Assembly: GCA_964583975.1 (NCBI GenBank)
Contig: CAZOXU010000010.1
Coordinates: 9,779 to 73,778, forward strand
From: an uncultured Planctomycetales bacterium
Lineage (GTDB): Bacteria > Omnitrophota > Gorgyraeia > Zapsychrales > Fredricksoniimonadaceae
Length of the DNA: 64,000 bases
Reading direction: 5' to 3'
This document shows positions 21,112-41,400 of the stretch, one piece after another. Under the pieces are notes generated by a model, which saw nothing but the letters and a program-made list of their open reading frames with translations, ran no database searches and had not been told where the DNA came from. Each line of letters begins with the position of its first letter. The first letter of the stretch is position 1. Made by a program: the position numbers and the translations under genes.

Positions 21112-21140
21112 TTGTATCGTGAAGAAGCGGTGGATATAAT
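21112..21140 (+). promoter_or_regulatory. sigma70-like promoter (TTGTAT-17-TATAAT) giving a leaderless transcript for the ANTAR regulator
   Basis: The -35 is TTGTAT at 21112-21117, the spacer is 17 nt, and the -10 is TATAAT at 21135-21140. The ATG at 21148 lies 7 nt after the -10 with no room for an SD sequence. Confidence 0.55.
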
Positions 21141-21147
21141 ACGCCCT

Positions 21148-22383
21148 ATGAAAAATAAGGCTCCCCAAAAAACTTTGAACATTTCTTCGAATGAAGAACT
21201 TAAAGTGCTTCGTTCGGTGGTAGACATTGCCTCCTCTGAACTGGATTTAAATCTCACCCTACAGTTGATTGTTAAAATTGTTAATGAAATGACCAAGGCT
21301 GACTCGGTTTTTATTTATTTGTTTGATGATAGAAAAGAATATCTCGTTTTGATGGCTTCTAAAACAGCGCATACTAAGGAACTTGGCAAGGTGCATTTGG
21401 AAATTGGTGAAGGTATTACGGGTTGGGTAGCGCGTGAAAGTAAAACTGTGGCCATTGCCAAATTGGCCTACAAAGACCAGCGCTTTAAGAGCTTTGATGT
21501 TTTACCTGAAGATCGTTATGAAGCGTTTTTGTCAGTCCCTGTTATCTTCAAGGGGAAAGCCATTGGAGTTATTAATGTGCAGCATAAACGCGAGCAGGAT
21601 TATTCAGCGACGACAGTTAATCTGATTGAAATGATTGCCAAGCAAGTTGGTGGCGTTATCGAACACGCCAGGCTTTTTGAAGAAACTAAGAAGAAGGCCT
21701 TACAATTCGATTCGTTGGTCAAGGTTTCTCGTTCAATTACCTCCGAACATTATCTCGATGAAATTTTAAATTTGATTGTAGTTGTGACAGCTGAAATGCT
21801 TAATTCTAAAATTTGTTCGATCATGTTATTAGATGAGAAGGGCCAGGAACTGGTCATTAAAGCGACCCAGTCGCTCAATGAAGACTACAAAAAGAAACCG
21901 AATATTAGCGTGGAAAACTCCTTAAGCGGAACAGTTCTTAAGACGCGTAAACCCATTGCAGTTTCGGATGTCCGTCACGAAAAAAAATATGCGTACCCAG
22001 ATTTGGCAGCCAAGGAAGGATTGACCTCCATGGTGGCTGTGCCGATGATTGTGAAGGACAAGGCTATTGGAGTCATCAACGTTTATACCAAACAACCGCA
22101 CAAGTTTACCGATGAAGAGGTCAATGTGTTACAAATGGTGGCCAATCAGGCAGCGGTTGCTGTTGAAAATACCAAACTAGTTGAAGAAGCGATCAAAGCT
22201 AAGGAAGCCCTTGAGACCCGCAAGGTCATTGAGAGGGCTAAAGGCATTATTATGAAGATGAACAATCTTTCCGAAGAAGCCGCCCACCGACTTATTCATA
22301 AAAAGAGCATGGATGCCAGCCGCTCCATGAAAGATGTGGCCGAATCCATTATCCTCATGGCAGATTTACAGAAGTCGTTATAA
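21148..22383 (+). CDS. GAF-GAF-ANTAR RNA-binding antitermination regulator
   Basis: Two GAF-like domains and a C-terminal ANTAR-like helical domain (residues about 360-411, KVIERAKGIIM..L.E.EA...I...S). The start is set at the ATG at 21148 because the ORF-track start at 21112 lies inside the predicted promoter. Confidence 0.75.
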   Translation: MKNKAPQKTLNISSNEELKVLRSVVDIASSELDLNLTLQLIVKIVNEMTKADSVFIYLFDDRKEYLVLMASKTAHTKELGKVHLEIGEGITGWVARESKTVAIAKLAYKDQRFKSFDVLPEDRYEAFLSVPVIFKGKAIGVINVQHKREQDYSATTVNLIEMIAKQVGGVIEHARLFEETKKKALQFDSLVKVSRSITSEHYLDEILNLIVVVTAEMLNSKICSIMLLDEKGQELVIKATQSLNEDYKKKPNISVENSLSGTVLKTRKPIAVSDVRHEKKYAYPDLAAKEGLTSMVAVPMIVKDKAIGVINVYTKQPHKFTDEEVNVLQMVANQAAVAVENTKLVEEAIKAKEALETRKVIERAKGIIMKMNNLSEEAAHRLIHKKSMDASRSMKDVAESIILMADLQKSL

Positions 22384-22498: not shown

Positions 22499-22807
22499 GT
22501 GGAATTTATTGAAACGCTTTTGTTTAGCAAAGCAGCAAGAGGGCTACTAAATGAGGAGGAAATAGCCCAATTACAAATGACATTGATGTTTTATCCGGCG
22601 ATGGGGGCGTTTATTCCCGGCTCAGGAGGCTTAAGGAAGCTCCGATGGTTAGGGGTTGGAAAAGGCAAACGCGGAGGCTTAAGAATTATTTATTATTGGG
22701 TCTCACAGGACCATCAAATTTATCTTTTATATGTTTATAAAAAGAATCAACAAGAAGATTTGACTGCCGAACAGATTGAATATTTAAGACGATTACTGGA
22801 GGAATAA
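22499..22807 (+). CDS. type II toxin, RelE/ParE superfamily (HigB/Gp49-like)
   Basis: 102 aa with a GGLRIIYYW..........LLYVYKK motif. GTG start with an AAGGTG RBS. Directly followed by a 96 aa HTH protein. Confidence 0.65.
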   Translation: MEFIETLLFSKAARGLLNEEEIAQLQMTLMFYPAMGAFIPGSGGLRKLRWLGVGKGKRGGLRIIYYWVSQDHQIYLLYVYKKNQQEDLTAEQIEYLRRLLEE

Positions 22808-22808
22808 G

Positions 22809-23099
22809 ATGAATAAGAAGGATTTTGATAAACTCGTGACCAGCATTAAACAGATGAAGCAAATAAAGGCAGGAAAACTTAAGGCGGCCAAAGCAACAAA
22901 GTTTAATCACATAGAGATTAAATCTATTCGTCAGAAACTGCATCAATCCCAGTCAGAGTTTGCTTTTATGATTGGCGTTAGCCCTTCGACTTTGAAGAAT
23001 TGGGAACAGGGCCTTAGAACTCCAATGGGGCCAGCCATGGCTTTACTAACTGTCGCACAGAAAAACCCTCATGCCGTCTATGATGCTTTGCATTCTTAA
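22809..23099 (+). CDS. HTH XRE-family antitoxin (HigA-like)
   Basis: 96 aa, helix-turn-helix (SQSEFAFMIGVSPSTLKNWEQGLRTP). Its start is 2 nt after the toxin stop. Confidence 0.65.
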   Translation: MNKKDFDKLVTSIKQMKQIKAGKLKAAKATKFNHIEIKSIRQKLHQSQSEFAFMIGVSPSTLKNWEQGLRTPMGPAMALLTVAQKNPHAVYDALHS

Positions 23100-23153
23100 G
23101 TTGTTGCCCTAGTTTGTTTTCCCCATACCCATCGGGTATACTTACCTATAATT

Positions 23154-26100
23154 ATGTATATATACTTAAAGAAACCCCTTATATGTCTCCTTTTGTGCGC
23201 TTTTTTCTTCCAAAACTTGGGTTTTGGTCAAGGGACTGCCTCAGCGCAAGCTTTGCCCGAGCCAGGCATATTGCTTGAGCCCAGTGCAGCTTTTTCTCCA
23301 GCCCTGATGACTGGAATGACCATCCATCCTGAAAACCCGCTCGAATTTGATTTCATTGTTGATACCGGAGAAGACCATTTGCAAGGTGAAGAACTTAAAG
23401 CCCAAGCCCAGCGAATGGTGAATTACTTTATGGCAACCTTGACTGTTCCAGAAGATGAAATGTGGGTTAACCTTTCGCCTTATGAAAAGAACCACATCAT
23501 TGCCGATGGATTAAGCGTCACGGAAATGGGGCGTGACATGTTAGCCCAGGACTATCTTTTAAAACAGTTGACTGCCTCGCTCATTTATCCGGAACGAGAT
23601 TTGGGAAAGAAATTTTGGGAAGGTGTCTATAAAAAAGCCCAGGCCCTCTATGGCACAACCGAGGTTCCCGTAAATACGTTTAATAAAGTTTGGATCATTC
23701 CTGATGAAGCCAGCGTCTACAGCAAGGACAATAAAGTTTTTATTACGAATAGTCATTTGAAGGTGATGTTGGAATGCGATTACCTGGCGATGTCAAAACA
23801 AAATGTAGGGGCGACCCCCCGTGGTCGCCCTCAAGAAGGGCAGGCACAGGGGCCTGCCCCTACGGATACCAATATAATGGCCAATCAAATCGTCCGCGAC
23901 TTGGTCGTCCCCGCAATCACCAAGGAAATTAATGAAGGCAAAAACTTCGCCAATTTGCGCCAGATTTACAATTCTATGATTTTAGCAACATGGTATAAAC
24001 GCAAATTACACAAATTTGTACGGGCTGGGTCTCCCAGCCCTAACGCAAAGGGTGGGGAAACCCCACCCCTACAGAATTACATCGACCATAACAAAACCAA
24101 CGGCATTGAAATAGATGATAAAACCATCAAGGAAAAAATCTACAATCAATACCTGGCAGCATTCAAAAAAGGTGTGTTTAATTTTATTAAAGAAGACTCT
24201 TTGCCTACAGGCCAAACCATTCCTCGCAAGTATTTTGCCGGAGGCTTGGTCGCTCCAAAAGTGATCAAAGATGCAGCTACGCTATCTCCTGACTATTTAA
24301 TACAAGCCCAACGCAATCCGAAGGTGGTTGTTAGTGTTGATGCGCAACCGTTGAAAGAAGGTGTGGCTGATCAATCGATGGTATCAGAAGTAATACAGCT
24401 TTTATTTGGTCTTGATCAAAAGATCCTCGAAGAAAATTTTGGGTCAATGGACAATGTTATTGCTGCTGGCAAGGCCATGGCAGCTCTGAAACGATACGAT
24501 TGGAAGTCGGTGAGACATTTATTGAAAGGCGACGCTTTAGAAGTAAGGACTAAAATGCGTAATGAAGTTCGTACCGGTCAAAATAGCAGCACTCGCTTTG
24601 GAGGCCAGTTGGCGACTGATATTTTATTGGCCATTGGTAAATTTGCAAACTTGAATCCCCCAACTCAAAGTTTTATGTGGGAAGTGTTTAAAGACAAAAT
24701 AAGTAAGCTGCCTTCGGAGGTCGATAAATCGTCTTTGATGATCGGCTATATCGATGGACTGACGTCTCTAGAAGCAATGATTACCTTGGGAACTTTAACC
24801 GAAGATCGATTTAAAGATCCTACAGAAATGAGCACTAATCAAAGAGAAATATTGGCGCATGCTTTAGAGTTGAACCATGGAGATTTTAAACAGGCAATAG
24901 GTTACGTTCGTTGGATTCTTCCAGAAACCGGATTGTCAGATGCGGCGATGGCGGCTAATAAGGCGAAGAAACCATTGTCTGATTTATCCGAGGCAGAATT
25001 AAAAACTGAAATTATAGAACATATCTTTAAAGGGACACCATTAGATGGTGTTATCGATGATGTGCTGACTGTTTTTAATAGACAAGGTGGTTTTAGTGTA
25101 ATCCTTAAGTCTAAGCAAATGGATTTTTCTGTTTGGGATTTTAGCTACAATAAACAAAACATTACTTCGTGTACGTTTACCGGCAATAAATTTCGTAGTA
25201 AATATAATCGGGTACTACTGGGGTCCATTTTGTATTGGGCACAAACACGATGGGGTATGACCCGAGGCAGTGATTGGGCAACAGATCAGAAAGCTGCACA
25301 ATTCTTTGTCGATATTTTTGATGGTTGGGCTCTGCCAGGGCAAAATCCTGTCACATTCAAAAATGCTAGAATTACAGGTGGTTTTTTAATGAGTGTAGAT
25401 CTGACCAAATTAGATCTCGCTTCGCACTGGCCGTTTACAAATTTTGTGAATAAAGATAGGGCGATGGAGAGCCCCCAAGAGAATAAAGAGGCATTGCTAC
25501 GTGAACTTTTTCAAAATGAATTGCGTAAGATGACATCAGGCCTATTGTTTAGAATACTGCACAGATTATCTTTGGTTAATCCTATTCAAGCTGTTGCCCA
25601 AAGAGTAGTTGATTCGATTCTAGAAATGGAAGAATCTCCTCAAAGGGAAATGATGTTAGATTCAATTCGAAATTTCTCGCCTGCAGATTCAAGTAATTCA
25701 CTTATAGATCCAACCGACGCTGTTCTAATTCAAGCTAAACATTATCTCCAGGCTTTTGATTACCGCAGAATGATGCTGGCAGGGGCAATAAATGGCATGG
25801 CTGTATCTCTAGTAGAAGGTGTTCCTTTGTCGAAGACATTTTCATTTGGTGTAGATATTTTGGAAACCCCCAACGGTTTTCGTAGGTTTCAATACCTGGT
25901 TCGAAATGCCATGTTTCATCATGCAGATCATCTTAATTGGGAGCTACAAAAGCAATATCCAACAGATGGGCGCCAGTTAATGATTTTTGATTTGTTGCCT
26001 GATTACGCTAGATTTGGTTTCGATCCACCAGTAATCATTGCTGGTGAAGAGATTTCCAATGTCCCTTACGATCAATTGACTGTTGAGCAAAAAACATTGC

Positions 26101-27974
26101 TTAAGGTTGAAATGCAACGGTATGAGAATCGTGCACGCAAGGTAGCTGAATTCTTAGAAAGATTTCCTCCTCAAGTTGCCAATACGATAATGAACATTAA
26201 TGACGAAGACTTCCGGACACGTTTAACTCGAGATCTCATGAATAAAGATTTTAGCAACGCAAGGCAAAAACTTTTGGAACTCCAAGTTGAGCAAGATAAA
26301 TTAGCGGTAAAGATTGAAGAAATTAGTAGGACTATAAAATTAGAAGAAGCATTGTTAGAAATGAAACTGAGCGGTTCTTATTATCATCCTGAGGCCGTTG
26401 AGGATTTGTTAGAATTTGAAAAAGAACAAGAAAAGTTGATTTTTGAATTATATACGGAAAAGTATAAATCCTCTGATCAGCATGAGTATGTTATACATCT
26501 AATAAGGAATCTCTCAACCGATATCGAAAAACTATCGGCTACTGACAAGGCGATGGTGGCCAGTGGTGTGAAGAAGAAATTATCGGATTTATCCTCCACA
26601 GAATTAAGAGCTGAAATTATGAAGCATTTGATTAAAGGAACACCGTTGGAAGGCGTTGTAACAAATGTGAGAATTATTTCTAACCAAAGCGGAACGTTTC
26701 ATGCCATTTTTGATTCAGATCGATTTGGTACTTTGTATTGGGATTTTACTTATAAAGACCAAACCATTACTGAATTGACAATGACCGAAGGTGTGTTTCG
26801 AAGTCGATATAATCGTGTGCTTTTGGGATTGATACTGCATTGGGCGCAAACAAGATGGGGCATGACACAAGGCAAAAATTGGCCCATGGATCAAAAAGGC
26901 TCAGAGTTTTTCGTGAATGTTTTTAGTGAATGGGCCATCCCAGGGGAAAATCCTGTCACGTTGAATGGCGATAGTATCGCAGACGGTTTTAGTGTTGTAG
27001 ACTTTACCAAATTAGACCTCGTTCGCCACTGGCCGTTTGCCGATTTCGTGAATAAAGACAAGGCGATGACGGGGGAGTATGGCGCTAGTGTTGAGCGTAC
27101 GGCGAATGGTTTTACTGTCCGTTGGAAAGTGGCCTATGATAATATCGTGATCGAGCAATTTCCTCAATTGGTAGATAGTCTTTCAGTTATGGGCCCAGTG
27201 GAAGCCGCACAGAGATTTGCTTCAGGCCAGGAAGCAGTCACCTTATTACAAGTCGGGAATAAAGTAAAAGTATTTAGGCTCGAAGATGCTGAGGCTTTTG
27301 CTGAGAAATATCAGATTGCCGTTAGAATGGGGAATAGAAGTTACCGATTCAAAGGGCACAGGATTCAGCTTTTTGATCAACAAGGAATTATGCTGCAAGA
27401 ATTTGACGATCCAGAGATTCGGAGATTCTTGCTACTAAGAATTCATTCGGTGATTGGCTCTCTTTTAGTCGAAGTAGCTCGCAAAGACGTTCAAAGATTT
27501 ATGATGAAAGTTAAAGCCATGAAAGAAGGAATCACATATCAAGTTGATTTAATGAGTAAAAGTATCAATATACACTTGGGCGGAGTAAATCCTGTTATTG
27601 ATAAATTGACGGGCGCTATTATGCCAGAGGGTTTCCCGCCTACGTTGACAGATCAAGCTTACTTGCTCAGTCGGATGGCGTTGGCTTTGAGGTATACGGT
27701 TTTGGACGAAAGGGAGCAAAAAATCGTACGCCTTCCTTCTATGTCTGAGGTCTTGGCCTACAATCCCGTTGCTGATAATGCAATGACGGCCACCCCCGGC
27801 GGTATCGACTTTAATGCAAAGAACTTGAATTTAAAGGAACAAGGCTCCCCCAGCGAAACAGCATTTAAGCTAAGTGCTGAAAACGATCAAATCAACGGGA
27901 TTCGGCCGGTTATTATCAAAATCACCCCGGTCACCAATCTTCCTCAATTACTTGGGATAGATACCACTAGTTGA
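23154..27974 (+). CDS. giant secreted protein of unknown function (1606 aa) with an internal duplicated domain of about 170 aa
   Basis: N-terminal signal peptide (LICLLLCAFFFQNLGFG). A segment (about nt 24961-25470) recurs at about 26569-27075 with roughly 55% amino acid identity (KYNRVLLG..L.WAQTRWGMT.G..W..DQK). Two GC-rich palindromic repeat elements are inserted in frame (see repeats). Confidence 0.7.
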   Translation: MYIYLKKPLICLLLCAFFFQNLGFGQGTASAQALPEPGILLEPSAAFSPALMTGMTIHPENPLEFDFIVDTGEDHLQGEELKAQAQRMVNYFMATLTVPEDEMWVNLSPYEKNHIIADGLSVTEMGRDMLAQDYLLKQLTASLIYPERDLGKKFWEGVYKKAQALYGTTEVPVNTFNKVWIIPDEASVYSKDNKVFITNSHLKVMLECDYLAMSKQNVGATPRGRPQEGQAQGPAPTDTNIMANQIVRDLVVPAITKEINEGKNFANLRQIYNSMILATWYKRKLHKFVRAGSPSPNAKGGETPPLQNYIDHNKTNGIEIDDKTIKEKIYNQYLAAFKKGVFNFIKEDSLPTGQTIPRKYFAGGLVAPKVIKDAATLSPDYLIQAQRNPKVVVSVDAQPLKEGVADQSMVSEVIQLLFGLDQKILEENFGSMDNVIAAGKAMAALKRYDWKSVRHLLKGDALEVRTKMRNEVRTGQNSSTRFGGQLATDILLAIGKFANLNPPTQSFMWEVFKDKISKLPSEVDKSSLMIGYIDGLTSLEAMITLGTLTEDRFKDPTEMSTNQREILAHALELNHGDFKQAIGYVRWILPETGLSDAAMAANKAKKPLSDLSEAELKTEIIEHIFKGTPLDGVIDDVLTVFNRQGGFSVILKSKQMDFSVWDFSYNKQNITSCTFTGNKFRSKYNRVLLGSILYWAQTRWGMTRGSDWATDQKAAQFFVDIFDGWALPGQNPVTFKNARITGGFLMSVDLTKLDLASHWPFTNFVNKDRAMESPQENKEALLRELFQNELRKMTSGLLFRILHRLSLVNPIQAVAQRVVDSILEMEESPQREMMLDSIRNFSPADSSNSLIDPTDAVLIQAKHYLQAFDYRRMMLAGAINGMAVSLVEGVPLSKTFSFGVDILETPNGFRRFQYLVRNAMFHHADHLNWELQKQYPTDGRQLMIFDLLPDYARFGFDPPVIIAGEEISNVPYDQLTVEQKTLLKVEMQRYENRARKVAEFLERFPPQVANTIMNINDEDFRTRLTRDLMNKDFSNARQKLLELQVEQDKLAVKIEEISRTIKLEEALLEMKLSGSYYHPEAVEDLLEFEKEQEKLIFELYTEKYKSSDQHEYVIHLIRNLSTDIEKLSATDKAMVASGVKKKLSDLSSTELRAEIMKHLIKGTPLEGVVTNVRIISNQSGTFHAIFDSDRFGTLYWDFTYKDQTITELTMTEGVFRSRYNRVLLGLILHWAQTRWGMTQGKNWPMDQKGSEFFVNVFSEWAIPGENPVTLNGDSIADGFSVVDFTKLDLVRHWPFADFVNKDKAMTGEYGASVERTANGFTVRWKVAYDNIVIEQFPQLVDSLSVMGPVEAAQRFASGQEAVTLLQVGNKVKVFRLEDAEAFAEKYQIAVRMGNRSYRFKGHRIQLFDQQGIMLQEFDDPEIRRFLLLRIHSVIGSLLVEVARKDVQRFMMKVKAMKEGITYQVDLMSKSINIHLGGVNPVIDKLTGAIMPEGFPPTLTDQAYLLSRMALALRYTVLDEREQKIVRLPSMSEVLAYNPVADNAMTATPGGIDFNAKNLNLKEQGSPSETAFKLSAENDQINGIRPVIIKITPVTNLPQLLGIDTTS
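23808..23864. repeat. REP-like element, family A, two-hairpin module, copy 3, inserted in frame inside the 1606 aa CDS
   Basis: GGGCGAC-CCCCCGTG-GTCGCCC ... GGGCAGGCACAGGGGCCTGCCCCTACG. The first stem covaries with copy 1 (CAA/TTG versus CGAC/GTCG). It encodes a G/P-rich peptide (GATPRGRPQEGQAQGPAPTD). Confidence 0.8.
24015..24069. repeat. REP-like element, family B (GTAC-GGGC head), inserted in frame in the 1606 aa CDS
   Basis: GTACGGGCTGGGTCTCCCAGCCC ... GGGTGGGG-aaa-CCCCACCC. Same GGGCTGGGT-N-ACCCAGCCC palindrome as the copies at 30683, 33033 and 57684. Confidence 0.75.
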
Positions 27975-28049
27975 CAGAGAAAATTTGATTATTCAAATAT
28001 AAAAAAGACGAACAATTGACTGGATAATATCGGGTGTTAAACTAAACCC

Positions 28050-28628
28050 ATGCCTAATTTATATGTTATAGCTGGACCCAATGGAGCAGGAAAGACAACA
28101 TTCGCTAAAGAGTTTTTACCTTTATATGCTCATTGTCCCAATTTTATTAATGCAGACTTGATCGCAGCTGGTATTGCTCCGTTTGCTCCCGCCAGGGCTC
28201 AAATCAAGGCAGGCAAAATATTAATAGGACAGATCGATCAGTTTCTTAGAGACAAGGTTAATTTTGCTTTTGAATCTACCCTTTCAGGCAAAGCTTATGT
28301 TTCCTTGTTTAAAGAAGCTAGAGCTCAAGGGTATACAATTACAGTTTTTTATTTGAGTATTCCAAGCAATAAACTTGCTCAAGAAAGGATTAAACAGCGC
28401 GTTAAAGAAGGCGGGCATAATGTTCCCGTTGCTGATATTAACAGACGTTTTAAGAGAAGTTGGAGAAATTTTATTAACCTGTATAAGCCGTTAACTAATT
28501 CGTGGATTTTGTTTGATAACTCAGATCTTAAACCGGTTGAAATAGCGAAATCTAATAAGGGTAAATTAGAAATCTTAAATAAATTTTTATATACTCAGTT
28601 GATGGAGGATCAAAATGGCAAGTCTTAA
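28050..28628 (+). CDS. zeta-toxin-like / AAA P-loop kinase family protein
   Basis: 192 aa with a Walker A motif (GPNGAGKTT); overall resemblance to the zeta toxin / UDP-GlcNAc kinase-like ATPase family. Confidence 0.55.
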   Translation: MPNLYVIAGPNGAGKTTFAKEFLPLYAHCPNFINADLIAAGIAPFAPARAQIKAGKILIGQIDQFLRDKVNFAFESTLSGKAYVSLFKEARAQGYTITVFYLSIPSNKLAQERIKQRVKEGGHNVPVADINRRFKRSWRNFINLYKPLTNSWILFDNSDLKPVEIAKSNKGKLEILNKFLYTQLMEDQNGKS

Positions 28629-28779
28629 ATCTAGCGCAGTAATTTTAAATAAAGCAGGGAAGGCCATGCGTAGCGCGGTACGTAAAGTTTTGGCTGAAAA
28701 GAAATTAAGAGGAGAACCTGCCATTATTTGGAGAAACGGGAAGGTTGTAAAGATTCCTGCAAAACAATTAGGGGAATAA
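28615..28779 (+). CDS. small ORF (54 aa) overlapping the stop of the zeta-like ATPase gene
   Basis: ATG at 28615, stop at 28777-28779. Translation: MASLKSSAVILNKAGKAMRSAVRKVLAEKKLRGEPAIIWRNGKVVKIPAKQLGE. It overlaps the upstream gene by 14 nt, so it may be a translationally coupled partner such as an antitoxin-like protein. It is below the ORF-track length cutoff. Confidence 0.35.
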   Translation: MASLKSSAVILNKAGKAMRSAVRKVLAEKKLRGEPAIIWRNGKVVKIPAKQLGE

Positions 28780-28787
28780 AAAAATTC

Positions 28788-28816
28788 TTGACAATCAACA
28801 TTTCATCGGATATATT
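28788..28816 (+). promoter_or_regulatory. sigma70 consensus-like promoter upstream of amtB (TTGACA-17-TATATT)
   Basis: TTGACA at 28788-28793, a 17 nt spacer, and TATATT at 28811-28816. A leader of roughly 220 nt follows. Confidence 0.6.
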
Positions 28817-28964
28817 TGCTGCGTTGTTAAAGCTCAAAGCAAAGAAGTTTTGGGCGAGATGTAAGGACAAAGATGGTCCTCTTGGAAGAGTAACGATACT
28901 CCCTCAAGAGGATTTTTTATTTTGTAGGACAGGCTAAGATAGCCTAAGTCAAGGACACAGAAGT

Positions 28965-29010
28965 CCAGTTTTCCGCAGGCAGTGAAGCGGGGGGCTGGAT
29001 TTTTTTATTG
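28965..29010 (+). terminator. terminator/attenuator-like hairpin plus T-run in the amtB leader
   Basis: CCAGTTTTCCGC-(10 nt loop)-GCGGGGGGCTGG (12 bp with G-U pairs) followed by ATTTTTTTATTGG, 28 nt before the amtB ATG. A second hairpin+T-run (CCTCTTG ... CAAGAGG ATTTTTTATTTT) lies at 28878-28924. Confidence 0.5.
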
Positions 29011-29038
29011 GAAAACAACAATAAACAGGAGGAAGTCG

Positions 29039-30286
29039 ATGGAAACAACACCAGTAAATCCAATTAATGCCGGGGATACGGCATGGGTCTTGGTCTCATC
29101 AGCACTTGTTTTGCTGATGACAGCACCAGGCTTAGCATTTTTCTATGGAGGGATGGTCAGACGCAAAAACATCTTAGGCGTTTTAATGCAATGTTTTATG
29201 TGTTTGGCTGTAGTGAGTATCTTATGGGTAGTTTATGGGTATAGTTTAGCTTTCAGTAAGGGAACCCCGTTCATCGGAGGTTTGGATTGGTTTATGTTAA
29301 AAGGCGTTGGTCAAGATCCTAACACAGACTACGCTGGAACTATTCCGCATTTAGCTTTTATGATCTTCCAAGCTATGTTTGCGGTCATCACACCAGCTTT
29401 GATCATTGGTGCTTATGCTGAACGCATGAAATTCTCCGCATTTTTACTTTTTACAGCGCTTTGGTTGACCTTCGTATACTGCCCAATTGCCCACATGGTT
29501 TGGGGTCTAGGTGGTTTTATCGGTGGTTTAGGAGCCAAGGATTTCGCTGGTGGTACCGTTGTTCATATCAATGCAGGTGTTGCAGGCTTAGTTACAGCCT
29601 TATATTTAGGTAGACGCGTTGGAACAGATAAACCTGGGATGCATAATGTGCCATTTGTTGTCTTAGGGTCTGCTTTACTGTGGTTCGGATGGTTTGGTTT
29701 CAATGCTGGTTCAGCCTTAGCTGCTAATGGTTTAGCTGCTCATGCTTTTGTGACCACCAACACCGCTACCGCTGCTGCTGCCATTAGCTGGGCTTTGATG
29801 GAATGGATCTTTGCAGGTAAACCAACCACCTTGGGTGCTGCTTCAGGTGCTATTGCAGGTTTAGTTGCCATCACCCCTGCTTGCGGTTTCGTTGATGTGG
29901 CTGGCTCATTATGGATTGGTTTATTAGTTAGCGTATTCTGCTACTGTATGGTTGCTTTCGTAAAACCAAAGTTGAAATACGATGACACCTTGGATGCTTT
30001 TGGGGTTCATGGCATCGGCGGACTTTTCGGTGCTTTAGCTACCGGTATCTTCGCTACCAAGGCTGTTAATGCTGCTGGTGTGGATGGGTTGCTTGCAGGA
30101 AATCCAGGGCAATTATGGATTCAAGCCCAAGCTTGTTTGATCACCATTGCTTTTACAGCAGTTGTCACATGGATTATCTGCTTCGTGGTTGATAAAATCG
30201 TAGGTCTTCGTGCTGAGCAAGAAGAAGAGATTATGGGGTTGGATTTATCTCAACATCACGAAAGAGCATATACAATTTTAGATTAA
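29039..30286 (+). CDS. amtB: ammonium transporter
   Basis: 415 aa from the ATG at 29039, preceded by an AGGAGG SD. Amt/MEP family multi-TM sequence. The ORF-track start at 28982 (GTG) runs through the terminator-like hairpin. Confidence 0.9.
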   Translation: METTPVNPINAGDTAWVLVSSALVLLMTAPGLAFFYGGMVRRKNILGVLMQCFMCLAVVSILWVVYGYSLAFSKGTPFIGGLDWFMLKGVGQDPNTDYAGTIPHLAFMIFQAMFAVITPALIIGAYAERMKFSAFLLFTALWLTFVYCPIAHMVWGLGGFIGGLGAKDFAGGTVVHINAGVAGLVTALYLGRRVGTDKPGMHNVPFVVLGSALLWFGWFGFNAGSALAANGLAAHAFVTTNTATAAAAISWALMEWIFAGKPTTLGAASGAIAGLVAITPACGFVDVAGSLWIGLLVSVFCYCMVAFVKPKLKYDDTLDAFGVHGIGGLFGALATGIFATKAVNAAGVDGLLAGNPGQLWIQAQACLITIAFTAVVTWIICFVVDKIVGLRAEQEEEIMGLDLSQHHERAYTILD

Positions 30287-30289
30287 TTA

Positions 30290-30325
30290 ATCGTACGGGC
30301 GGGGGGGTGCCCCGCCCGATAATAA
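30290..30325. repeat. REP-like family B variant after the amtB stop
   Basis: GTACGGGCGGGGG-ggtg-CCCCGCCCG, with a GTAC head and a GC-rich palindrome. Confidence 0.6.
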
Positions 30326-30340
30326 TTTAGGAGGTTTTCA

Positions 30341-30682
30341 ATGAAATTAGTGCTAGCAATCATACAGCCTCATAGACTCGAAGAAGTCAAAAAGGAGCTC
30401 TATGCCGCCGACGTTAACTTGATCACCGTTTCTGAGGTCTTAGGACATGGTCGTCAGGTGGGTGTTGATGAGTATTACCGTGGAGTGAAAGAAACCGGAA
30501 ACCTGTTGCGTAAGATTCAGGTTGAAATCGCAGTCAACGAAGATTATGTTGAACCAACTGTTAAAGCAATTATTAAGGGTGCTAGAACAGGTAAAATAGG
30601 CGATGGAAAGATTTTCGTCTTAGATTTGCCTCGCTGTATCCGCATCCGTACGGGCGAAGAAGGTTCCAAGGCGATTGGGTAG
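30341..30682 (+). CDS. glnK: nitrogen regulatory protein P-II (GlnK-type, linked to amtB)
   Basis: 113 aa P-II fold sequence with a T-loop tyrosine region (DEYYRG). AGGAGG SD. Immediately downstream of amtB. Confidence 0.88.
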   Translation: MKLVLAIIQPHRLEEVKKELYAADVNLITVSEVLGHGRQVGVDEYYRGVKETGNLLRKIQVEIAVNEDYVEPTVKAIIKGARTGKIGDGKIFVLDLPRCIRIRTGEEGSKAIG

Positions 30683-30723
30683 GGGCTGGGTAACCCAGCC
30701 CGTACACACACATGTGCACGGGC
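30683..30723. repeat. REP-like element, family B, after the glnK stop
   Basis: GGGCTGGGT-A-ACCCAGCCC, then GTACACACACATGTGCAC, then GGGC. Confidence 0.75.
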
Positions 30724-30731
30724 AAAACATC

Positions 30732-30760
30732 TTGACATGATTAGGGTTGTATATTAATAT
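30732..30760 (+). promoter_or_regulatory. sigma70-like promoter upstream of glnA type III (TTGACA-17-TAATAT)
   Basis: TTGACA at 30732-30737 and TAATAT at 30755-30760. The leader contains a hairpin AGGTTCTTC...GGAGAACCT (30786-30819) followed by TGCTTTTTAGA. Confidence 0.5.
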
Positions 30761-30883
30761 TCGACTCTATTCAATATAAACAGTGAGGTTCTTCTTCGAT
30801 TCATTCGCAAGGAGAACCTTGCTTTTTAGACACTAAATTTGAGTTAAAGCTAACGATAACATAATCAAAAAGGGGGAATCATC

Positions 30884-33028
30884 ATGGGGCAAGGACGTCA
30901 CGAAGTTTTAGAAGCATGTGCCGAAGAAGGCAGCTGCTGTAACGGCTCTTTTTCTCAGCACCTTCCTGATCATTTCGGGGACAATGTATTTAATTTGAAG
31001 GTCATGAAGCAAGTTTTGTCATCCAAAGCTTATGCTTCGATCGAAAAGACGATTAAAGAAGGTGGCCGCTTAGATCCAACAATTGCTGATGAAGTAGCTG
31101 ATGCTATGAAGAACTGGGCGATTTCTAAGGGAGCGACCCACTTTACACATTGGTTCCAACCAATGACCGGTACCACCGCTGAAAAGCATGATTCTTTCAT
31201 CAGCTGGAACGATGAAGGTGGCATTATCTTAAGCTTTGGTGGTAAAGAACTTATTCAAGGCGAGCCAGATGCTTCATCTTTCCCTTCTGGTGGTTTACGT
31301 GCAACTTTCGAAGCTCGTGGTTATACGGGTTGGGATCCAACTTCTCCTGCCTTTATTAAAGAAGGTCCCAATTGCGCCACTCTTTGTATTCCTACATTCT
31401 ATATCGGTTATCATGGTGAAGCGTTAGATAAAAAGACACCTTTATTGCGCTCCATGAATGCCTTATCTAAACAAATCTGTCGTCTGGCTGTGCTTTTTGG
31501 TATTGATACCAAAGGCAAACGTGCCTATTGCACTTTAGGACCAGAACAAGAATATTTCTTGATCGACAAAGCTCATTTCCAAGCTCGTTTGGATTTAGTC
31601 CAAACCGGCCGCACTTTGTTTGGCCGTAAACCAGCTAAACATCAACAACAAGAAGATCATTATTTTGGAGCTATCAAGCCCAGAATTATGGCTTTCATGG
31701 AAGATTTGGACCGCACCTTATGGGGCTTAGGAATGCCTTCTAAGACTCGTCACAATGAGGTTGCTCCTGCTCAATATGAAATCGCTCCTATCTATGAAGA
31801 TTTAAACACTGCTGTTGACCACAACATGATGGCCATGGAAATCATGCGTCAATTAGCGGATAAACACGGTTTGGCATGTTTGTTACATGAAAAGCCTTTT
31901 GCTGGCGTTAACGGATCAGGAAAACACAACAACTGGTCTGTGGTTGGTCCAGATGGTAAGAACTGGCTTTATCCTGGAAAAACACCCCATGAAAACGCCA
32001 AATTCTTAACCACCTTGTGTGCCATCATCAAGGCCGTTGACACCTATGCTGATTTGCTTCGTGTCACCGTTGCTTCTGCCGGAAATGATCATCGTTTAGG
32101 GGCTAATGAAGCACCGCCCGCGATCATTTCTATTTTCTTAGGCGAACAACTTTATGATATCGTCGAGCAAATTGAAAAAGGTGGCGCTAAGAGTTCAAAA
32201 CAAGGAAGCGCGATCCACGTTGGGGTTGATTCATTGCCATCGTTGGCTAAAGACACTACGGATCGTAATCGCACCTCACCATTTGCTTTCACTGGTGCAA
32301 AGTTTGAATTCCGTGCGCTTGGTTCTAATATGAATCCTTCATCTGCGAACATGGTGCTTAACACCATCGTAGCTGAAGCGATCAGTGATATCTGCGATCA
32401 ATTAGAAGCAGAGAAGAAATCCGGAAAAGATTTCAACAGCTCATTACAAAAAGTTTTACAAAACATCATTAAGAACCACAAGCGCGTCTTGTTTAATGGT
32501 GATAACTATACTTCTCAATGGCATGCTGAAGCCAAAAAGAGAGGTCTTCCTAACTTGAAAAATACTCCTGATGCTTTGGAAGCGATCAAAGCTAAGAAGA
32601 ATGTTCAAGTCTTAGTGAAGCACGGCATCTTAAGCGAGAAAGAAGTTGCTTCTCGTTATGAAATCAATGTGCATGCTTACAATACTGTGATTGCTTTGGA
32701 AGGCAGCTGTGCAGCTACCATGGCAAGAACACAATTAATTCCAGCAGCAATCGAATATCAAAAAGAACTAGCTGATGCCATCAAGAGCGTTGGTTCAGTA
32801 GGTAAAACTGCTAACCAAAAGAAGCTTTTGAAGGAGATCTCTGGATTAATTGATCAAGCATTAGCGATCACTGATACTCTAGAAGCTTCCATTGAGAAAC
32901 ATGATTCTGCTAAAACCAGTGCAGCGATGGCTAAATTACGTGAAGCAATCGATGCGCTTGAAGGTTTTGTGCCTGCATCGATCTGGCCCGTTCCTTCTTA
33001 TGCAGAAATGCTCTTAATGAACGCATAA
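30884..33028 (+). CDS. glnN: glutamine synthetase type III (GlnN)
   Basis: 714 aa, the length and N-terminal region typical of type III GS. GGGGAATCAUC-type RBS (AAAGGGGGAA). Confidence 0.88.
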
Positions 33029-33135: not shown

Positions 33136-33879
33136 ATGATTACTATCATCAAACACATTGATATCGAAGGCCCGGGGACCTTGGGAGACTTCTTAGAATA
33201 CCGATCAATCCCTTACCAAATCATTGATTTAGGAGAAGGCGAGCGTCTGCCTGAAGACTTTGCTAACATCGATGCCGTGGTTGTTCTTGGCGGCCCCATG
33301 AATGTCGATGAAGAAGATAAGTATCCATTTTTAAAGCAAGAAGATAGATTTATCAAAGAGATTTTACGACGCGAAATTCCTTTTCTGGGAATTTGTTTAG
33401 GTTCACAGCTCTTAGCTAAAGCAGCAGGGGCCAGAGTAGTTAAATCACCGGTTAAAGAAATTGGTTGGTATACGATTCAATTAACGCCGCAAGGCCAACA
33501 AGATCCTTTGTTTAAAAACTTTAAAGAAGATGAACCGATCTATCACTGGCACGGGGATATGTTTGAAATTCCATTGACAGGTCAGTTATTAGCAACAGCC
33601 CAAGGTTGCCCACACCAAGCCCTCAAGATAGGTGAGAAAGCCTATGGCATACAGTTTCATGTAGAGGTCACCGATAAAAGCATTAAAGACTGGTGCGAGG
33701 AATATTGCCAGAACGACCTGCCCGGTCGGCCTGAACATGCCAAGAGCATGCTGGATGATTATGCGCGTTACCAAAAAGAATTCTTAAGGCAGGCTAATAC
33801 GATTTATGAGAATTTTTTAGGAATTACAAAATTAGGGACAGCGCCCTATTTTTCTAAAGTGGGAACCAACAATAAATAG
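33136..33879 (+). CDS. class I glutamine amidotransferase (GATase1-like)
   Basis: Nucleophile-elbow motif GICLGSQ with downstream conserved His/Glu (YHWHGD, GIQFHVEV). Start trimmed to MITIIKH. Confidence 0.75.
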   Translation: MITIIKHIDIEGPGTLGDFLEYRSIPYQIIDLGEGERLPEDFANIDAVVVLGGPMNVDEEDKYPFLKQEDRFIKEILRREIPFLGICLGSQLLAKAAGARVVKSPVKEIGWYTIQLTPQGQQDPLFKNFKEDEPIYHWHGDMFEIPLTGQLLATAQGCPHQALKIGEKAYGIQFHVEVTDKSIKDWCEEYCQNDLPGRPEHAKSMLDDYARYQKEFLRQANTIYENFLGITKLGTAPYFSKVGTNNK

Positions 33880-33903
33880 GGCGCTGTCCCTAATTTTAAG
33901 ACT

Positions 33904-37629: not shown

Positions 37630-38359
37630 GAAGAATATCTTTACGATTGTTGTTATAGTCTTGCTAGGCTCTCAATTATTGTGGTTGGCCGTGGCACCGT
37701 CTTCGTTTAAGGTTAGTTGGAGCAAGAATCCTTTGATCGCCCAAATCATTCGCGAACATGCTCTAGTTAATGAAAAAAGTAAGGCCATGACAATCAGCTA
37801 TTATTTCCCACACTTTGCTTATTTTGCGGATATTGTCTTAGGAGTGCAAAAGCCAGAGAGTGAACTGATGGATGGCTATCATGATGGTAAGCCGTATATA
37901 TTTCGCATGTACTACCAAAAGGCTGCCACGCTGTTTCCTAATAACGATGATGCCCAGGCTTTGCTGGCTTTTACTCAGTACTACCAAAAGGATATTCCTC
38001 AAGCTATAGAAAGCTATCAGCGTTCCTTAGATCGCAATCCCTACTTCTTTTGGGGCTATTACAATTTGGGGGTCATTTATTTTCAACAAAAGGATTATTC
38101 AAAAAGTGCTCAGATGCTCAGCAAGGCCGTATCCTTAAATCCAGAGATTACCTTAAGAATTCTTTATCAATCAGCTTTATACAGACAGATATGGAAATCC
38201 TTACCTAATCCTCAGGCGACTTTGCAGGTTAATTTAGAGCAAGGCCGTCAAGATGCAGGGAGGCTTCTGGCAGTGTGTTTCTTAAGAATCAAGACAGGTA
38301 ATATAGATAATTCTTTAGAAGAACAGGTGGCAAAGCAGGTGGTTGTGAGGCTTTTTTAA
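37622..38359 (+). CDS. TPR-repeat protein with an N-terminal membrane anchor
   Basis: 245 aa with one N-terminal TM and TPR-like repeats (AQALLAFTQYYQKDIPQAIESYQRSLDRNPYF...). Overlaps the upstream gene by 8 nt. Confidence 0.6.
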   Translation: MLKKNIFTIVVIVLLGSQLLWLAVAPSSFKVSWSKNPLIAQIIREHALVNEKSKAMTISYYFPHFAYFADIVLGVQKPESELMDGYHDGKPYIFRMYYQKAATLFPNNDDAQALLAFTQYYQKDIPQAIESYQRSLDRNPYFFWGYYNLGVIYFQQKDYSKSAQMLSKAVSLNPEITLRILYQSALYRQIWKSLPNPQATLQVNLEQGRQDAGRLLAVCFLRIKTGNIDNSLEEQVAKQVVVRLF

Positions 38360-38488
38360 TTTCCAACAGATGGTGAAGTTTTAATTGCATTGCAAGACTA
38401 AAAACGCTAAAATATCCGCTTTACAAATGCATAAAAGCGATTCAAAAAACATCGATCCTTATTAAATTGAAGGGGTTTAGTCTCTAAA

Positions 38489-41400
38489 ATGAACGATAGT
38501 TTTTATCAAAATCCTAAAAAACAAGGCCTTTTTGATCCTCAAGCTGAAAATGATGCTTGCGGGGTAGGCTTTATTGTGAATGTCAAAAATAACAAGAGCC
38601 ATGACATTGTGCGTGGCGGGATCCAAATCCTAGAAAACTTGTCTCACCGCGGTGCTTGCGGCTGCGATCCTGAAACTGGCGATGGCGCTGGAATTATGAT
38701 CCAAATGCCCGATGCCTTTTTCCGCAAAGAATTAGCCAAACAAGAAATAGAACTTCCTGCCCTTGGAGATTACGGGGCTGGGATGGTGTTTTTACCTCAA
38801 GATCTTTCTGATCGTAATATCCTAGAAGAATGGACCGAGCATATCATCCATGAAGAGGGCCAGAAATTCTTAGGTTGGCGCCAAGTGCCTCATGAACCAA
38901 CCAAGATTGGTCGTGTGGCCCGTTCGGTCATGCCAGCTTTTAAGCAGCTTTTCATTGCTCGTGGCAAAAACACCAAGCCAGAAGATTTTGATCGCAAGCT
39001 TTTTGTGATCCGTAAGCGCTTATGGGCTAAGATCTATGCTTCAACCATTTCCCAGAAAAATTATTATTATTTCTGTTCACTAAACAGCAAAACCTTTGTG
39101 TATAAAGGCCAGCTGATGAGCGAACAAGTTGATCGTTTCTTTCCAGACCTATCTGATCCTCTGATGGTATCAGCTATCGCTCTGGTCCACTCACGTTATT
39201 CAACCAATACATTTCCTTCATGGTCACTGGCTCACCCCTATCGTATGGTGGCCCATAACGGAGAAATCAATACACTTCGTGGTAACATGAATTGGATGCA
39301 TGCCCGTGAAAAACAATTTGTGTCAAAAGTGTTTGGCGATGATCTTAAGAAGGTTTTGCCTATTGTAGTCCCTCACGGATCAGACACAGCTACCTTTGAT
39401 AACGTTTTAGAAATGTTAGTGTTGGCTGGTCGTTCTCTACCACATGCCATGATGATGATGGTCCCTGAAGCTTGGAGTGGACATCAAGGTATGGATCCTG
39501 TCAAACGTGCTTTTTATGAATATCATTCCTGCTTGGTTGAGCCATGGGATGGTCCAGCTGCTTTGGCTTTTTGCGATGGACGTTATGTGGGTGCTGTGCT
39601 TGATCGTAATGGACTTCGTCCTTCACGTTATGTGGTGACTAAAGATGATATGGTCATTATGGCCTCCGAGGCAGGCGTATTGCCTATTGATCCTCAAAAT
39701 GTCGTCAAAAAAGGACGTCTTCAGCCTGGTAAAATGTTTTTAGTAGACACCACTGAAGGTCGCATCATTGATGACAAGGAAGTTAAAGAATTTTATGCCA
39801 AAGCCAATCCTTACGGCAAATGGCTTAAAGATAATGTGGTTGATATTCGAGAATTGCCAAAGCCAAAGAAGGTCCAAGGCTTGAATGAAAAGACCCTTTT
39901 GCAGCGTCAGCGCGCTTTTGGATACACATTAGAAGATCTGAAAATCCTTTTGATGCCTATGGCCCAAGGTGAAGAAGCCACAGGTTCAATGGGAACAGAT
40001 ACACCGCTTGCTGTGTTATCAGCTCGTCCACAATTACTTTATAATTATTTCAAACAACTCTTTGCCCAAGTGACCAATCCACCGATCGATGCTATTCGTG
40101 AAGAAATCATCATGGCTGAAGATATGATGTTGGGCCCTGAGAGCAATCTTTTGGAAGAAACGCCAGAGCATTGCCATCGTCTGTGGATCCAACGACCAAT
40201 TTTAACTAATGAAGAATTAGAGAAGATCGCACATATCAATAAAGGCAGCCTCAAAGGCGTTACCTTACCCATTTTCTTTGATAAAAAAGACGGACCCGAA
40301 GGCTTAGAAAAAGCCATGGAAATTTTATTTAAGAAGGCTGACAAAGCCATCGACGATGGTTTTAGCATTTTGATTCTTTCTGATCGTGCCGTGAATGAAA
40401 AATCCGTTCCTATTCCATCTTTATTGGCTGTTTCTGGATTGCATCATCATTTAATCCGTCAAGGAACCAGGACCAAGGTCAGTTTGGTTTTGGAATCAGG
40501 CGAAGCCCGGGAATTGCATCATTTTGCTGTATTGATTGGCTATGGAGCTAACGCAATTAATCCTTATTTGGCTTTTGAAAGCATTGAGCACATGATTTTA
40601 GATGGTCGTTTCGAAGAGCCATTGGCTTTCAAAGATGCTGAGAAAAATTTCATTAAGGCCTGCCATAAAGGACTTTATAAGGTTATCTCAAAGATGGGAA
40701 TTTCAACCATCCAATCGTATTGCGGAGCTCAAATCTTTGAGGCTGTCGGGTTAGGCACCGAGCTTGTTGAACGATATTTTACAGCCACTCCTTCGCGTAT
40801 CGGTGGAATTGATTTAAAGACAGTGGCTCAAGAAGCTTTGAAGCGTCATGACGTTGGTTTCCCAACGATCCCAAGCCAAGATCAAATGCTTGAGCAAGGT
40901 GGAGACTATCATTGGCGACGTGAAGGTGAATATCATCAGTTGAATCCTCAGACCATTGCTTTGTTGCAACACTCTGTTCGAAGTGGAGATTATAAAATTT
41001 TTAAGGCTTTTTCAAAAGCTGTGAATGAACAAAACAAGGGCGTTGCCAATATCCGCGGTCTTTTGAAATTCAAAAAAGGCCATCCTATACCTATTGCTGA
41101 AGTTGAGCCTGCTAGTGAAATCGTCAAACGTTTTGCCACCGGCGCTATGAGCTATGGATCTGTATCTAAGGAAGCTCATGAGACTTTAGCTATTGCCATG
41201 AATCGCTTAGGTGGTTTCTCTAACACTGGCGAGGGTGGCGAAGATGCTAATCGTTATAAGAAAGATCCTAACGGTGATTGGCGCCGCAGCCGTATTAAGC
41301 AGGTGGCTCAAGGACGCTTTGGGGTCACCATTGAATATTTAGTCAATGCTGATCAATTGCAAATCAAGATGGCTCAAGGAGCCAAACCCGGTGAAGGTGG

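Follow-up and report, generated by a model that had tools for sequence, protein, structure and literature searches.

Terminator-overlapping hairpins in the amtB-glnK and glnN leaders of a Candidatus Omnitrophota bacterium as probable ANTAR-type attenuators

The ammonium transporter gene amtB (29039-30286, plus strand), the P-II gene glnK (30341-30682, plus strand) and the type III glutamine synthetase gene glnN (30884-33028, plus strand) lie in a row on a stretch of 64,000 nucleotides (nt) from an uncultured bacterium of the Omnitrophota (GenBank assembly GCA_964583975.1, contig CAZOXU010000010.1, positions 9,779 to 73,778 of the forward strand), the whole of which is here called the window. 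The genes were identified by Pfam and NCBIfam, and genes for a class-I amidotransferase and a glutamine-dependent NAD synthetase (nadE), together with gltBD, are found downstream of glnN. Both amtB and glnN are preceded by a leader in which terminators stand between the promoter and the start codon. On the same strand, 6.4 kb upstream of the amtB leader, is a gene encoding two GAF domains and an ANTAR domain. The leaders are considered below as probable ANTAR-type attenuators, and the GAF-GAF-ANTAR protein as their candidate regulator. The features on which the analysis depends are the following.

21148-22383, plus strand: GAF-GAF-ANTAR gene, candidate antiterminator; two GAF domains and ANTAR (PF03861, E = 9.8e-20) by Pfam
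28788-28816, plus strand: amtB promoter, TTGACA-17-TATATT, 11 of 12 matches
28832-28855, plus strand: hairpin P1a, GCUCAAAGC-AAAGAA-GUUUUGGGC, 9 base pairs (bp), canonical hexaloop with A at loop position 1 (A1) and G at position 4 (G4), C-G closure, -10.1 kcal/mol
28865-28879, plus strand: hairpin P2a, GGAC-AAAGAUG-GUCC, 7-nt loop with A1/G4, -4.9 kcal/mol, GUCC common to T1
28876-28924, plus strand: terminator 1 (T1), stem 28876-28912, -17.0 kcal/mol, then UUUUUUAUUUU
28931-28945, plus strand: hairpin P1b, AGGCU-AAGAU-AGCCU, non-canonical, -5.4 kcal/mol
28953-28966, plus strand: hairpin P2b, GGAC-ACAGAA-GUCC, canonical hexaloop, -4.0 kcal/mol, GUCC common to T2
28963-29008, plus strand: terminator 2 (T2), 14-bp stem 28963-29000, -20.5 kcal/mol, then UUUUUUUAU
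29039-30682, plus strand: putatively regulated genes amtB and glnK/P-II; amtB ribosome-binding site (RBS) AGGAGG at 29027-29032, ATG at 29039
30732-30760, plus strand: glnN promoter, TTGACA-17-TAATAT, 10 of 12 matches
30778-30791, plus strand: glnN leader hairpin, AAAC-AGUGAG-GUUC, 3 bp, hexaloop with A1/G4, C-G closure
30782-30828, plus strand: glnN leader terminator, stem 30782-30823, -23.1 kcal/mol, then UUUUUAGA

The amtB and glnN promoters are the two top-ranking plus-strand sites in a promoter scan of 28000-31500. The 224-nt amtB leader folds at -75.3 kcal/mol compared with -50.2 kcal/mol in shuffles (z = -6.3, equalled by 0 of 200 shuffles), and the folding z-score of the glnN leader is -2.7. 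The hairpins of the amtB leader form two modules, each ahead of its own terminator. Module a consists of P1a (9 bp), a 9-nt linker and P2a (4-5 bp), and module b of P1b (4-5 bp), a 7-nt linker and P2b (4 bp), so that both present two tandem stem-loops of at least 3 bp with a short linker. Known ANTAR targets are defined by hairpins of at least 3 bp, A1/G4 loops, C-G closure and a terminator overlapping the second hairpin (PMC3369931), with a linker of 5-12 nt in the eut targets of E. faecalis. Canonical A1/G4 hexaloops are present in P1a (AAAGAA), P2b (ACAGAA), the T1 apex (AACGAU) and the glnN hairpin (AGUGAG), and P2b is the sole match to GGRCANNGNNGYCC in the window. The loop of P1b reads U-A-A-G-A-U-A when its U-A pair is open. 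The T1 apex (28888-28901, GAGU-AACGAU-ACUC) forms by itself a hexaloop hairpin with A1/G4, and together with P1a and P2a it makes three A1/G4 hairpins in a row. At the T1-apex position L161 and L165, two of the related contigs described below, have AAUGAA, and the A1/G4 apex is not kept in L162, L166 and L168. The T2 apex (28980-28993, GC-AGUGAA-GC) has an A1/G4 loop too; the apical closures are C-G or U-A.

T1 and T2 begin with the 4 nt GUCC of P2a and P2b, respectively, and in both terminators this GUCC pairs with a GGAU lying directly before the U-run. Each small hairpin and its terminator are therefore mutually exclusive. Folding with P2a or P2b forced costs about 6-7 kcal/mol and yields a shortened terminator hairpin with GGAU unpaired ahead of the U-run. 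Intrinsic termination needs a stem that reaches the U-tract, and a geometry that leaves GGAU unpaired next to the U-run is expected to defeat it. The preliminary description of this DNA had listed the promoters and the leader hairpins with their T-runs, and the sequence reads as stated there, coordinates included. Its judgement that the open reading frame (ORF) at 28728-28937 is spurious agrees with the orthologous leaders, where every one of the three frames contains stops and a 7-nt indel occurs. For annotation, this removes one spurious ORF and would explain the "terminators" found between promoter and start codon.

The candidate regulator is encoded by an ORF that opens at 21112 (423 aa), and homologues of 411 aa suggest a start at 21148. 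Pfam places the ANTAR domain at residues 363-414 of the 423-aa ORF. It lies C-terminally behind a sensor region, in keeping with ANTAR antiterminator proteins, in which the three-helix ANTAR domain follows a sensor domain and a coiled coil, and it aligns with EutV 130-189 (6wsh), Rv1626 135-196 (1s8n) and NasR 353-413 (4akk). The second GAF domain (GAF2) is closest to the N-terminus of NifA (TIGR01817, E = 1.8e-29), and the NifA GAF domain is a 2-oxoglutarate- and P-II-responsive module. The first (GAF1) is closest to EI-Ntr/PtsP's N-terminal GAF domain (PDB 3ci6, E = 2.7e-25; NCBIfam PRK11061, positions 2-161, E = 3.9e-41), which binds glutamine (PMC4848567). Judged from these domain matches, the protein would be a one-component nitrogen sensor.

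Scans of genome and metagenome contig collections gave no close relative of AmtB (at most 68% identity), and orthologous leaders were reached via homologues of the regulator protein. More than 100 of these were found at 68-95% identity; those with a source name are labelled Candidatus Omnitrophica/Omnitrophota, and the others carry a generic GAF-domain label, which places the window in that phylum. Ten distinct Omnitrophota contigs were compared; L163, a further contig carrying the L162 protein, ends within the gene downstream of the regulator and was not counted. In eight of the ten the regulator gene is followed on the same strand by amtB-glnK, directly in L162, L166 and L171 and with one or two genes between in L161, L165, L168, L169 and L170. 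Six of these eight have a glutamine synthetase gene behind amtB-glnK, with the amidotransferase (GATase) and nadE genes next in L162, L169 and L171, while L161 ends inside amtB and L170 has ptsP instead. The remaining two contigs have other genes behind the regulator gene: a PAS-GerE regulator gene with nirBD and nasA-type genes in L164, and a gene of more than 6300 codons in L167.

All six elements of the amtB leader (P1a, P2a, T1, P1b, P2b and T2) are kept in the six leaders that were aligned, those of the window, L161, L162, L165, L166 and L168, and related hairpin-terminator units are present in the amtB leaders of L169 and L171. An amtB-type promoter lies at the equivalent place in L161, L162, L165, L166 and L168, and TTGACA-17-TAATAT also precedes glnN in L162 and L168. 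In P1a all cells are paired in the six orthologues, with one compensatory change from C-G to U-A. The heptaloop of P2a, AARGAYN, is kept in L161, L162, L165, L166, L168 and L171, and the base of T1 (GUCCUCUU/AAGRGGAU) is kept in relatives. P1b varies more (GGC-UAUGAU-GCC, GGGC-UAUGGCA-GCUC and GGGC-AAUGAUA-GCCC), most loops reading UAWGRY(A); G4 is kept and position 1 is mostly U, not A. In P2b the arms GGAC/GUCC are invariant and the loop is A..G.. in five of the six orthologues (G1 in L166). The T2 orthologues are paired in 95.9% of cells with five pairs changed on both sides, which 0 of 500 shuffles reach. As the non-canonical loops are kept in relatives, they are family features and not sequencing noise.

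The glnN leader is built more simply. The loop and 3' arm of its hairpin sit inside the 5' arm of the terminator, in which GUUC pairs with GAAC and the stem runs six more bases (CUUGCU) before the U-run. The leader is assigned to the same class because orthologous glutamine synthetase leaders carry a hairpin at the same position, GGGC-ANNGAR-GUCC in L162, L165, L166 and L168. With the terminator arm included, these leaders read GGGC-loop-GUCC...GGAC (GGAU in L162), and the window reads AAAC-AGUGAG-GUUC...GAAC; where the shared segment went from C to U, the upstream arm and the 3' arm of the terminator each went from G to A. Compensation in both alternative pairings points to selection on both, as a switch predicts. 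A single hexaloop has been described as the minimal ANTAR binding motif, its sufficiency for antitermination not having been demonstrated (PMC8934654).

An ANTAR-target model, to which the preliminary description had pointed, gave a positive result. The covariance model, R1, was made from 31 published ANTAR targets with the published two-hairpin structure (Ramesh 2012, PMC3369931, Fig. S1 and S2). Its training set held none of the sequences studied here, and it was scanned over both strands with filters off. The best R1 match in the window is at 28865-28901 in the amtB leader (20.3 bits, E ~0.003, such E-values being rough), where P2a is scored as the first hairpin and the T1 apex as the second. 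A further match at 28796-28850 (13.2 bits) contains P1a. R1 also matches the relatives, at 13247-13284 of L162 (21.8 bits) and at 11286-11328 of L166, the latter spanning P1a and P2a. In addition, it matches amtB leaders of loci from Bacillota and Deltaproteobacteria (e.g., L011, L013, L014 and L020), in agreement with the 2012 survey.

The amtB leader also stands out against chance. A composite motif was defined as a hairpin of at least 4 bp with C-G closure and an A..G.. loop of 6-7 nt, the 3' arm of which opens a terminator stem (8 bp or more) with a U-run behind it. The two strands of the window together contain this motif twice, both times in the amtB leader, and dinucleotide shuffles of the window contain 0.04 per window, with two or more in 0 of 200. 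A stricter scan for dual hexaloops (contiguous stems of at least 4 bp, loops of exactly 6 nt) missed the amtB leader on account of the 7-nt loop of P2a and the non-canonical P1b; its three hits, at 2949, at 33833 and, on the minus strand, at 10849, are unrelated. The gltBD leader (38359-38489) contains no hairpin-terminator unit, and gltBD is accordingly left out of the regulon. A unit-like site on the minus strand (7352-7293) was rejected as chance, as no gene lies downstream on that strand.

At gathering thresholds, cmscan of the whole window against Rfam returned only a tRNA and no ANTAR-type family, and a permissive scan of 28600-31000 (E <= 10) returned noise only, namely uup, mir-553, isrG, tpke11 and PhrS fragments. 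The glutamine riboswitch (Rfam glnA), which the preliminary description had brought up, has no match at gathering score or at E <= 10, and this riboswitch and other Rfam families were rejected for lack of matches. The loose likeness to the glutamine-riboswitch core noted for 28950-28966 does not hold, the stretch being the stem and loop of P2b (GGAC-ACAGAA-GUCC).

The anatomy of the leaders, its conservation, the scores with the published model and the linkage of the genes together make it probable that the amtB-glnK leader holds two consecutive protein-dependent ANTAR-type attenuators and the glnN leader one, with the product of 21148-22383 as the regulator. From them we infer binding of the loops and premature termination along the following lines. 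By default, transcription would start at constitutive-looking sigma-70 promoters, and most RNAs would fold the terminators and end short of the coding region. The GAF-GAF-ANTAR protein, as an active dimer, would bind the loops, in module a the stable P1a first, which is proposed as the recruitment hairpin, and P2a next. Successive binding of two hairpins is the model for EutV (PMC8934654). With the small hairpin held closed, GUCC would be kept from GGAU and the polymerase would read through. Two modules in series would make expression of amtB-glnK steeply dependent on active regulator. The protein would bind RNA under nitrogen limitation, the cue being a low glutamine level and perhaps also high 2-oxoglutarate or free GlnK; this signal logic is likely, given the relationships of the GAF domains. 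The more general reading in the preliminary description, that terminators within the leaders stand for attenuation or antitermination, is borne out by the R1 match, by the ANTAR protein in the window and by a conserved leader with matching base changes.

Several observations weigh against this assignment. The two amtB modules both depart from the textbook dual hexaloop, P2a having a 7-nt loop and P1b a loop of 5-7 nt with U1. With R1, module b scores no higher than 6.3 bits, and the top R1 match couples P2a with the T1 apex, not with P1a. The second-best R1 match, at 19810-19844 (plus strand, 17.4 bits), lies antisense in nuoL; it was rejected as an ANTAR site, its first stem being unpaired and the match probably due to chance. 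The glnN hairpin has 3 bp, is worth 0 kcal/mol alone and would need about 17 kcal/mol to be held against the terminator. The glnN transcript also contains no second hairpin, hence no tandem stem-loops, and its leader gives no R1 match at E <= 10. In the regulator, His takes the place of the aromatic residue that stacks on the flipped-out G4 in EutV (Tyr there, Phe in Rv1626 and Trp in NasR). The last points concern a table of 33 hairpin-terminator units from the window, nine regulator-derived Omnitrophota contigs and the AmtB-derived loci L001 and L002. Their 4-bp hairpin has 95.3% of its cells paired and three of four pairs changed on both sides, which 2 of 500 shuffles reach; this speaks for the assignment, but the statistic is biased to pairing in that the units were chosen by eye and by a hairpin-and-terminator scan. 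In three related units (GGAC...GCCC) the hairpin contains an A·C mismatch. Pair counts for the terminator base on the same units were not used, pairing there being a selection criterion and the count circular.

The small hairpins might be bound by another trans-acting factor, such as a different ANTAR protein, another RNA-binding protein or a small RNA. Only 64 kb of the genome are visible, the regulator gene lies 6.4 kb off with toxin-antitoxin genes and a giant gene between, and the 7-nt loop of P2a and U1 in P1b are unlike EutV or NasR targets. Such a factor is nevertheless improbable in view of the relatives, in which the regulator gene adjoins the amtB leader in L162, L166 and L171 and is linked to it in eight of the ten distinct contigs. 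Moreover, two units precede the regulator gene itself in L170, units precede the genes directly downstream of it in L164, and the conservation of the regulator across the phylum (70-95% identity) goes in step with that of the hairpin sequence.

It is very improbable that the hairpins are ordinary constitutive terminators, insulators or RNA-stability elements in which the A..G.. loops are coincidental. Placed between near-consensus promoters and the RBS, ordinary terminators would block their own genes, and the leaders stay with amtB and the glutamine synthetase gene whatever the upstream gene is (regulator, giant protein or glnK). There is also covariation between the upstream 4-nt arm and the shared segment, the composite motif exceeds chance about 50-fold, and the published model finds its best window match here. 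On the other side, T1 and T2 are good intrinsic terminators behind a gene pair (28050-28779) that needs one, and the glnN hairpin offers only a weak alternative structure. Least probable of all, to the point of being hardly tenable, is that the leaders are riboswitches in which glutamine or another nitrogen metabolite controls the terminators directly and no protein takes part: the terminator-in-leader layout fits this equally well and glutamine riboswitches in cyanobacteria control these same genes, but no Rfam family other than noise appears even at E <= 10, the conserved RNA consists of separate 14-24-nt hairpins with variable linkers (9 vs 16 nt from P1a to P2a, and about 60-70 nt inserted between the modules in L162 and L166) and not of a conserved multi-helix core, no more than about 20 nt precede the terminator in the glnN leader, and A1/G4 loops with C-G closure are the protein-recognition signature of ANTAR targets.

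A wider proposal is tentative and falls somewhat short of being probable. Nitrogen control in Candidatus Omnitrophota may have the GAF(EI-Ntr-like)-GAF(NifA-like)-ANTAR protein as its master regulator, which would read glutamine and/or 2-oxoglutarate directly, act on RNA and replace NtrBC/sigma-54 or GlnR/TnrA. If this is true, the regulon would be marked by GGRC-A..G..-GYCC hairpins fused to terminators and would comprise amtB-glnK, glnN or glnA and nitrate assimilation genes, with the regulator's own gene and giant secreted proteins added in some lineages. Tolerance of 7-nt loops and single-hairpin sites would widen the ANTAR recognition rules.

Further observations were made on the relatives. 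In L170, units with the hairpins GAC-AAAGGU-GUC and GGAC-AAUGAU-GUCC lie at 9829-9990 ahead of the regulator gene, which appears to head an operon with amtB-glnK-ptsP and suggests autoregulation in that lineage. A gene for a giant protein of 1606-1929 aa lies between the regulator gene and amtB in the window (23154-27974), L161 (11498-17044), L165 (11473-17262) and L168 (11475-17210). The protein has no Pfam domain and a signal-peptide-like N-terminus, and over the first 365 aa the versions of the window and L165 share 46% identity. Its leader, missing in the window, has hairpin-terminator units of the same type in L161 and L165, and the nitrogen regulon may therefore include the giant protein. 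Between T2 and amtB, L165 (17825-17925), L166 (11510-11620), L168 (17825-17925) and L169 (11775-11870) have a small ORF that carries an RBS of its own and codes for about 30-35 hydrophobic residues; the window lacks it. Between modules a and b, L162 (11376-11445) and L166 (11368-11440) contain an inserted element of about 60-70 nt that is imperfectly palindromic, GGTTCGACTCA...GAGTCGAAGG, which indicates that the attenuator modules are separable. Many amtB genes of PVC bacteria and Deltaproteobacteria that are close at the protein level (L005-L010, L032) have sigma-54 promoters (TGGCAC-N5-TTGC) and not attenuators, so that the same gene stands under two unrelated control logics in neighbouring lineages.

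Other features were recorded around the genes of the window. Toxin-antitoxin-like genes at 22499-23100 and 28050-28779 break the regulator-to-amtB synteny. The first set, after the regulator gene, consists of a RelE-like ORF followed by a helix-turn-helix-like ORF, and the second, just ahead of the amtB promoter, of a zeta-toxin/AAA-like ORF and a 54-aa ORF. GC-rich hairpins without a U-run are present after the stop codons of amtB (30296-30322, GGGCGGGG-GGUG-CCCCGCCC) and glnK (30683-30725, GGGGCUGGGU-AACCCAGCCC, then GUGCAC...), and may serve in processing or stability and not as terminators. A very stable 24-bp hairpin at 33828-33897 (-41 kcal/mol, z = -8.8), preceded by an A-run and followed by a U-run, overlaps the amidotransferase stop codon and ends 7 nt ahead of the nadE start. 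Its 5' arm can fold alone as UAGGG-ACAGCG-CCCUA, with an A1/G4 loop and G-C closure. L162 and L171 lack an equivalent at that position, and R1 gives no match to the window hairpin.

The principle of such control is known and is not new here. Antitermination by GnfR at glnK-amtB of Geobacter was shown in 2010 (PMC2995071), and ANTAR targets were predicted across phyla in 2012 before genes for P-II, ammonium transporters, glutamine synthetase and glutamate synthase (PMC3369931). With these precedents the present leaders are a further example of a known switch type. The literature searched contained no paper linking ANTAR to Candidatus Omnitrophota and no characterised GAF-ANTAR case, an architecture noted as uncharacterised in 2012 (PMC3369931). 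Likewise not described in that literature are a GAF-GAF-ANTAR protein with identified targets, an Omnitrophota-wide role and conserved non-canonical loops. The predicted leaders would give a GAF-ANTAR protein defined natural RNA targets, and an uncultured phylum would gain a concrete, testable nitrogen circuit with a regulator, RNA sites and a regulon.

Among known systems, the glutamine riboswitch (glnA RNA motif) resembles the present case in controlling nitrogen-assimilation genes from a 5' leader. It differs from the leaders here, which are without the E-loop or pseudoknot core and without an Rfam match. EI-Ntr (PtsP) and NifA have the N-terminal GAF domains that GAF1 and GAF2 match and that serve as nitrogen-status sensors in their own proteins. 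EI-Ntr's GAF domain is fused to a phosphoenolpyruvate phosphotransferase and that of NifA to a sigma-54 AAA+ activator, whereas here the two are fused to an RNA-binding ANTAR domain. The targets of EutV, NasR and AmiR (PMC3369931, PMC8934654) share with the present ones the A1/G4 loops, the C-G closure and the second hairpin overlapping the terminator base, as well as an ANTAR protein encoded nearby and target genes of nitrogen metabolism. Some loops, e.g., AAAGAA, are identical in sequence to those of the eut targets of Listeria and Enterococcus. Differences are the GAF-GAF sensor in place of REC, NIT or AmiR_N, and, in the RNA, the conserved 7-nt loop of P2a, U1 in P1b and the single-hairpin glutamine synthetase leaders. 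Together with His in place of the G4-stacking Tyr, these RNA features offer natural tests of how strict ANTAR recognition is.

Also close are the nitrogen regulons predicted in Desulfotomaculum acetoxidans, D. reducens and Pelobacter (Ramesh 2012) and the GnfK/GnfR system of Geobacter sulfurreducens, in which antitermination acts at glnK-amtB, glutamine synthetase, glutamate synthase and nif leaders. GnfR is a phosphorylated response regulator with a REC domain, whereas the protein here has GAF domains and implies no kinase. The loops here are AAAGAW or ACAGAA in GGRC/GUCC stems and the conserved GnfR site CAGGCAANGGCGCC is absent; a search of the amtB and glnN leaders for the GnfR consensus GGCAANGGCGCC gave no match with up to two mismatches. 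Those nitrogen regulons and the amtB leader described here have in common that a single transcription unit carries several attenuators.

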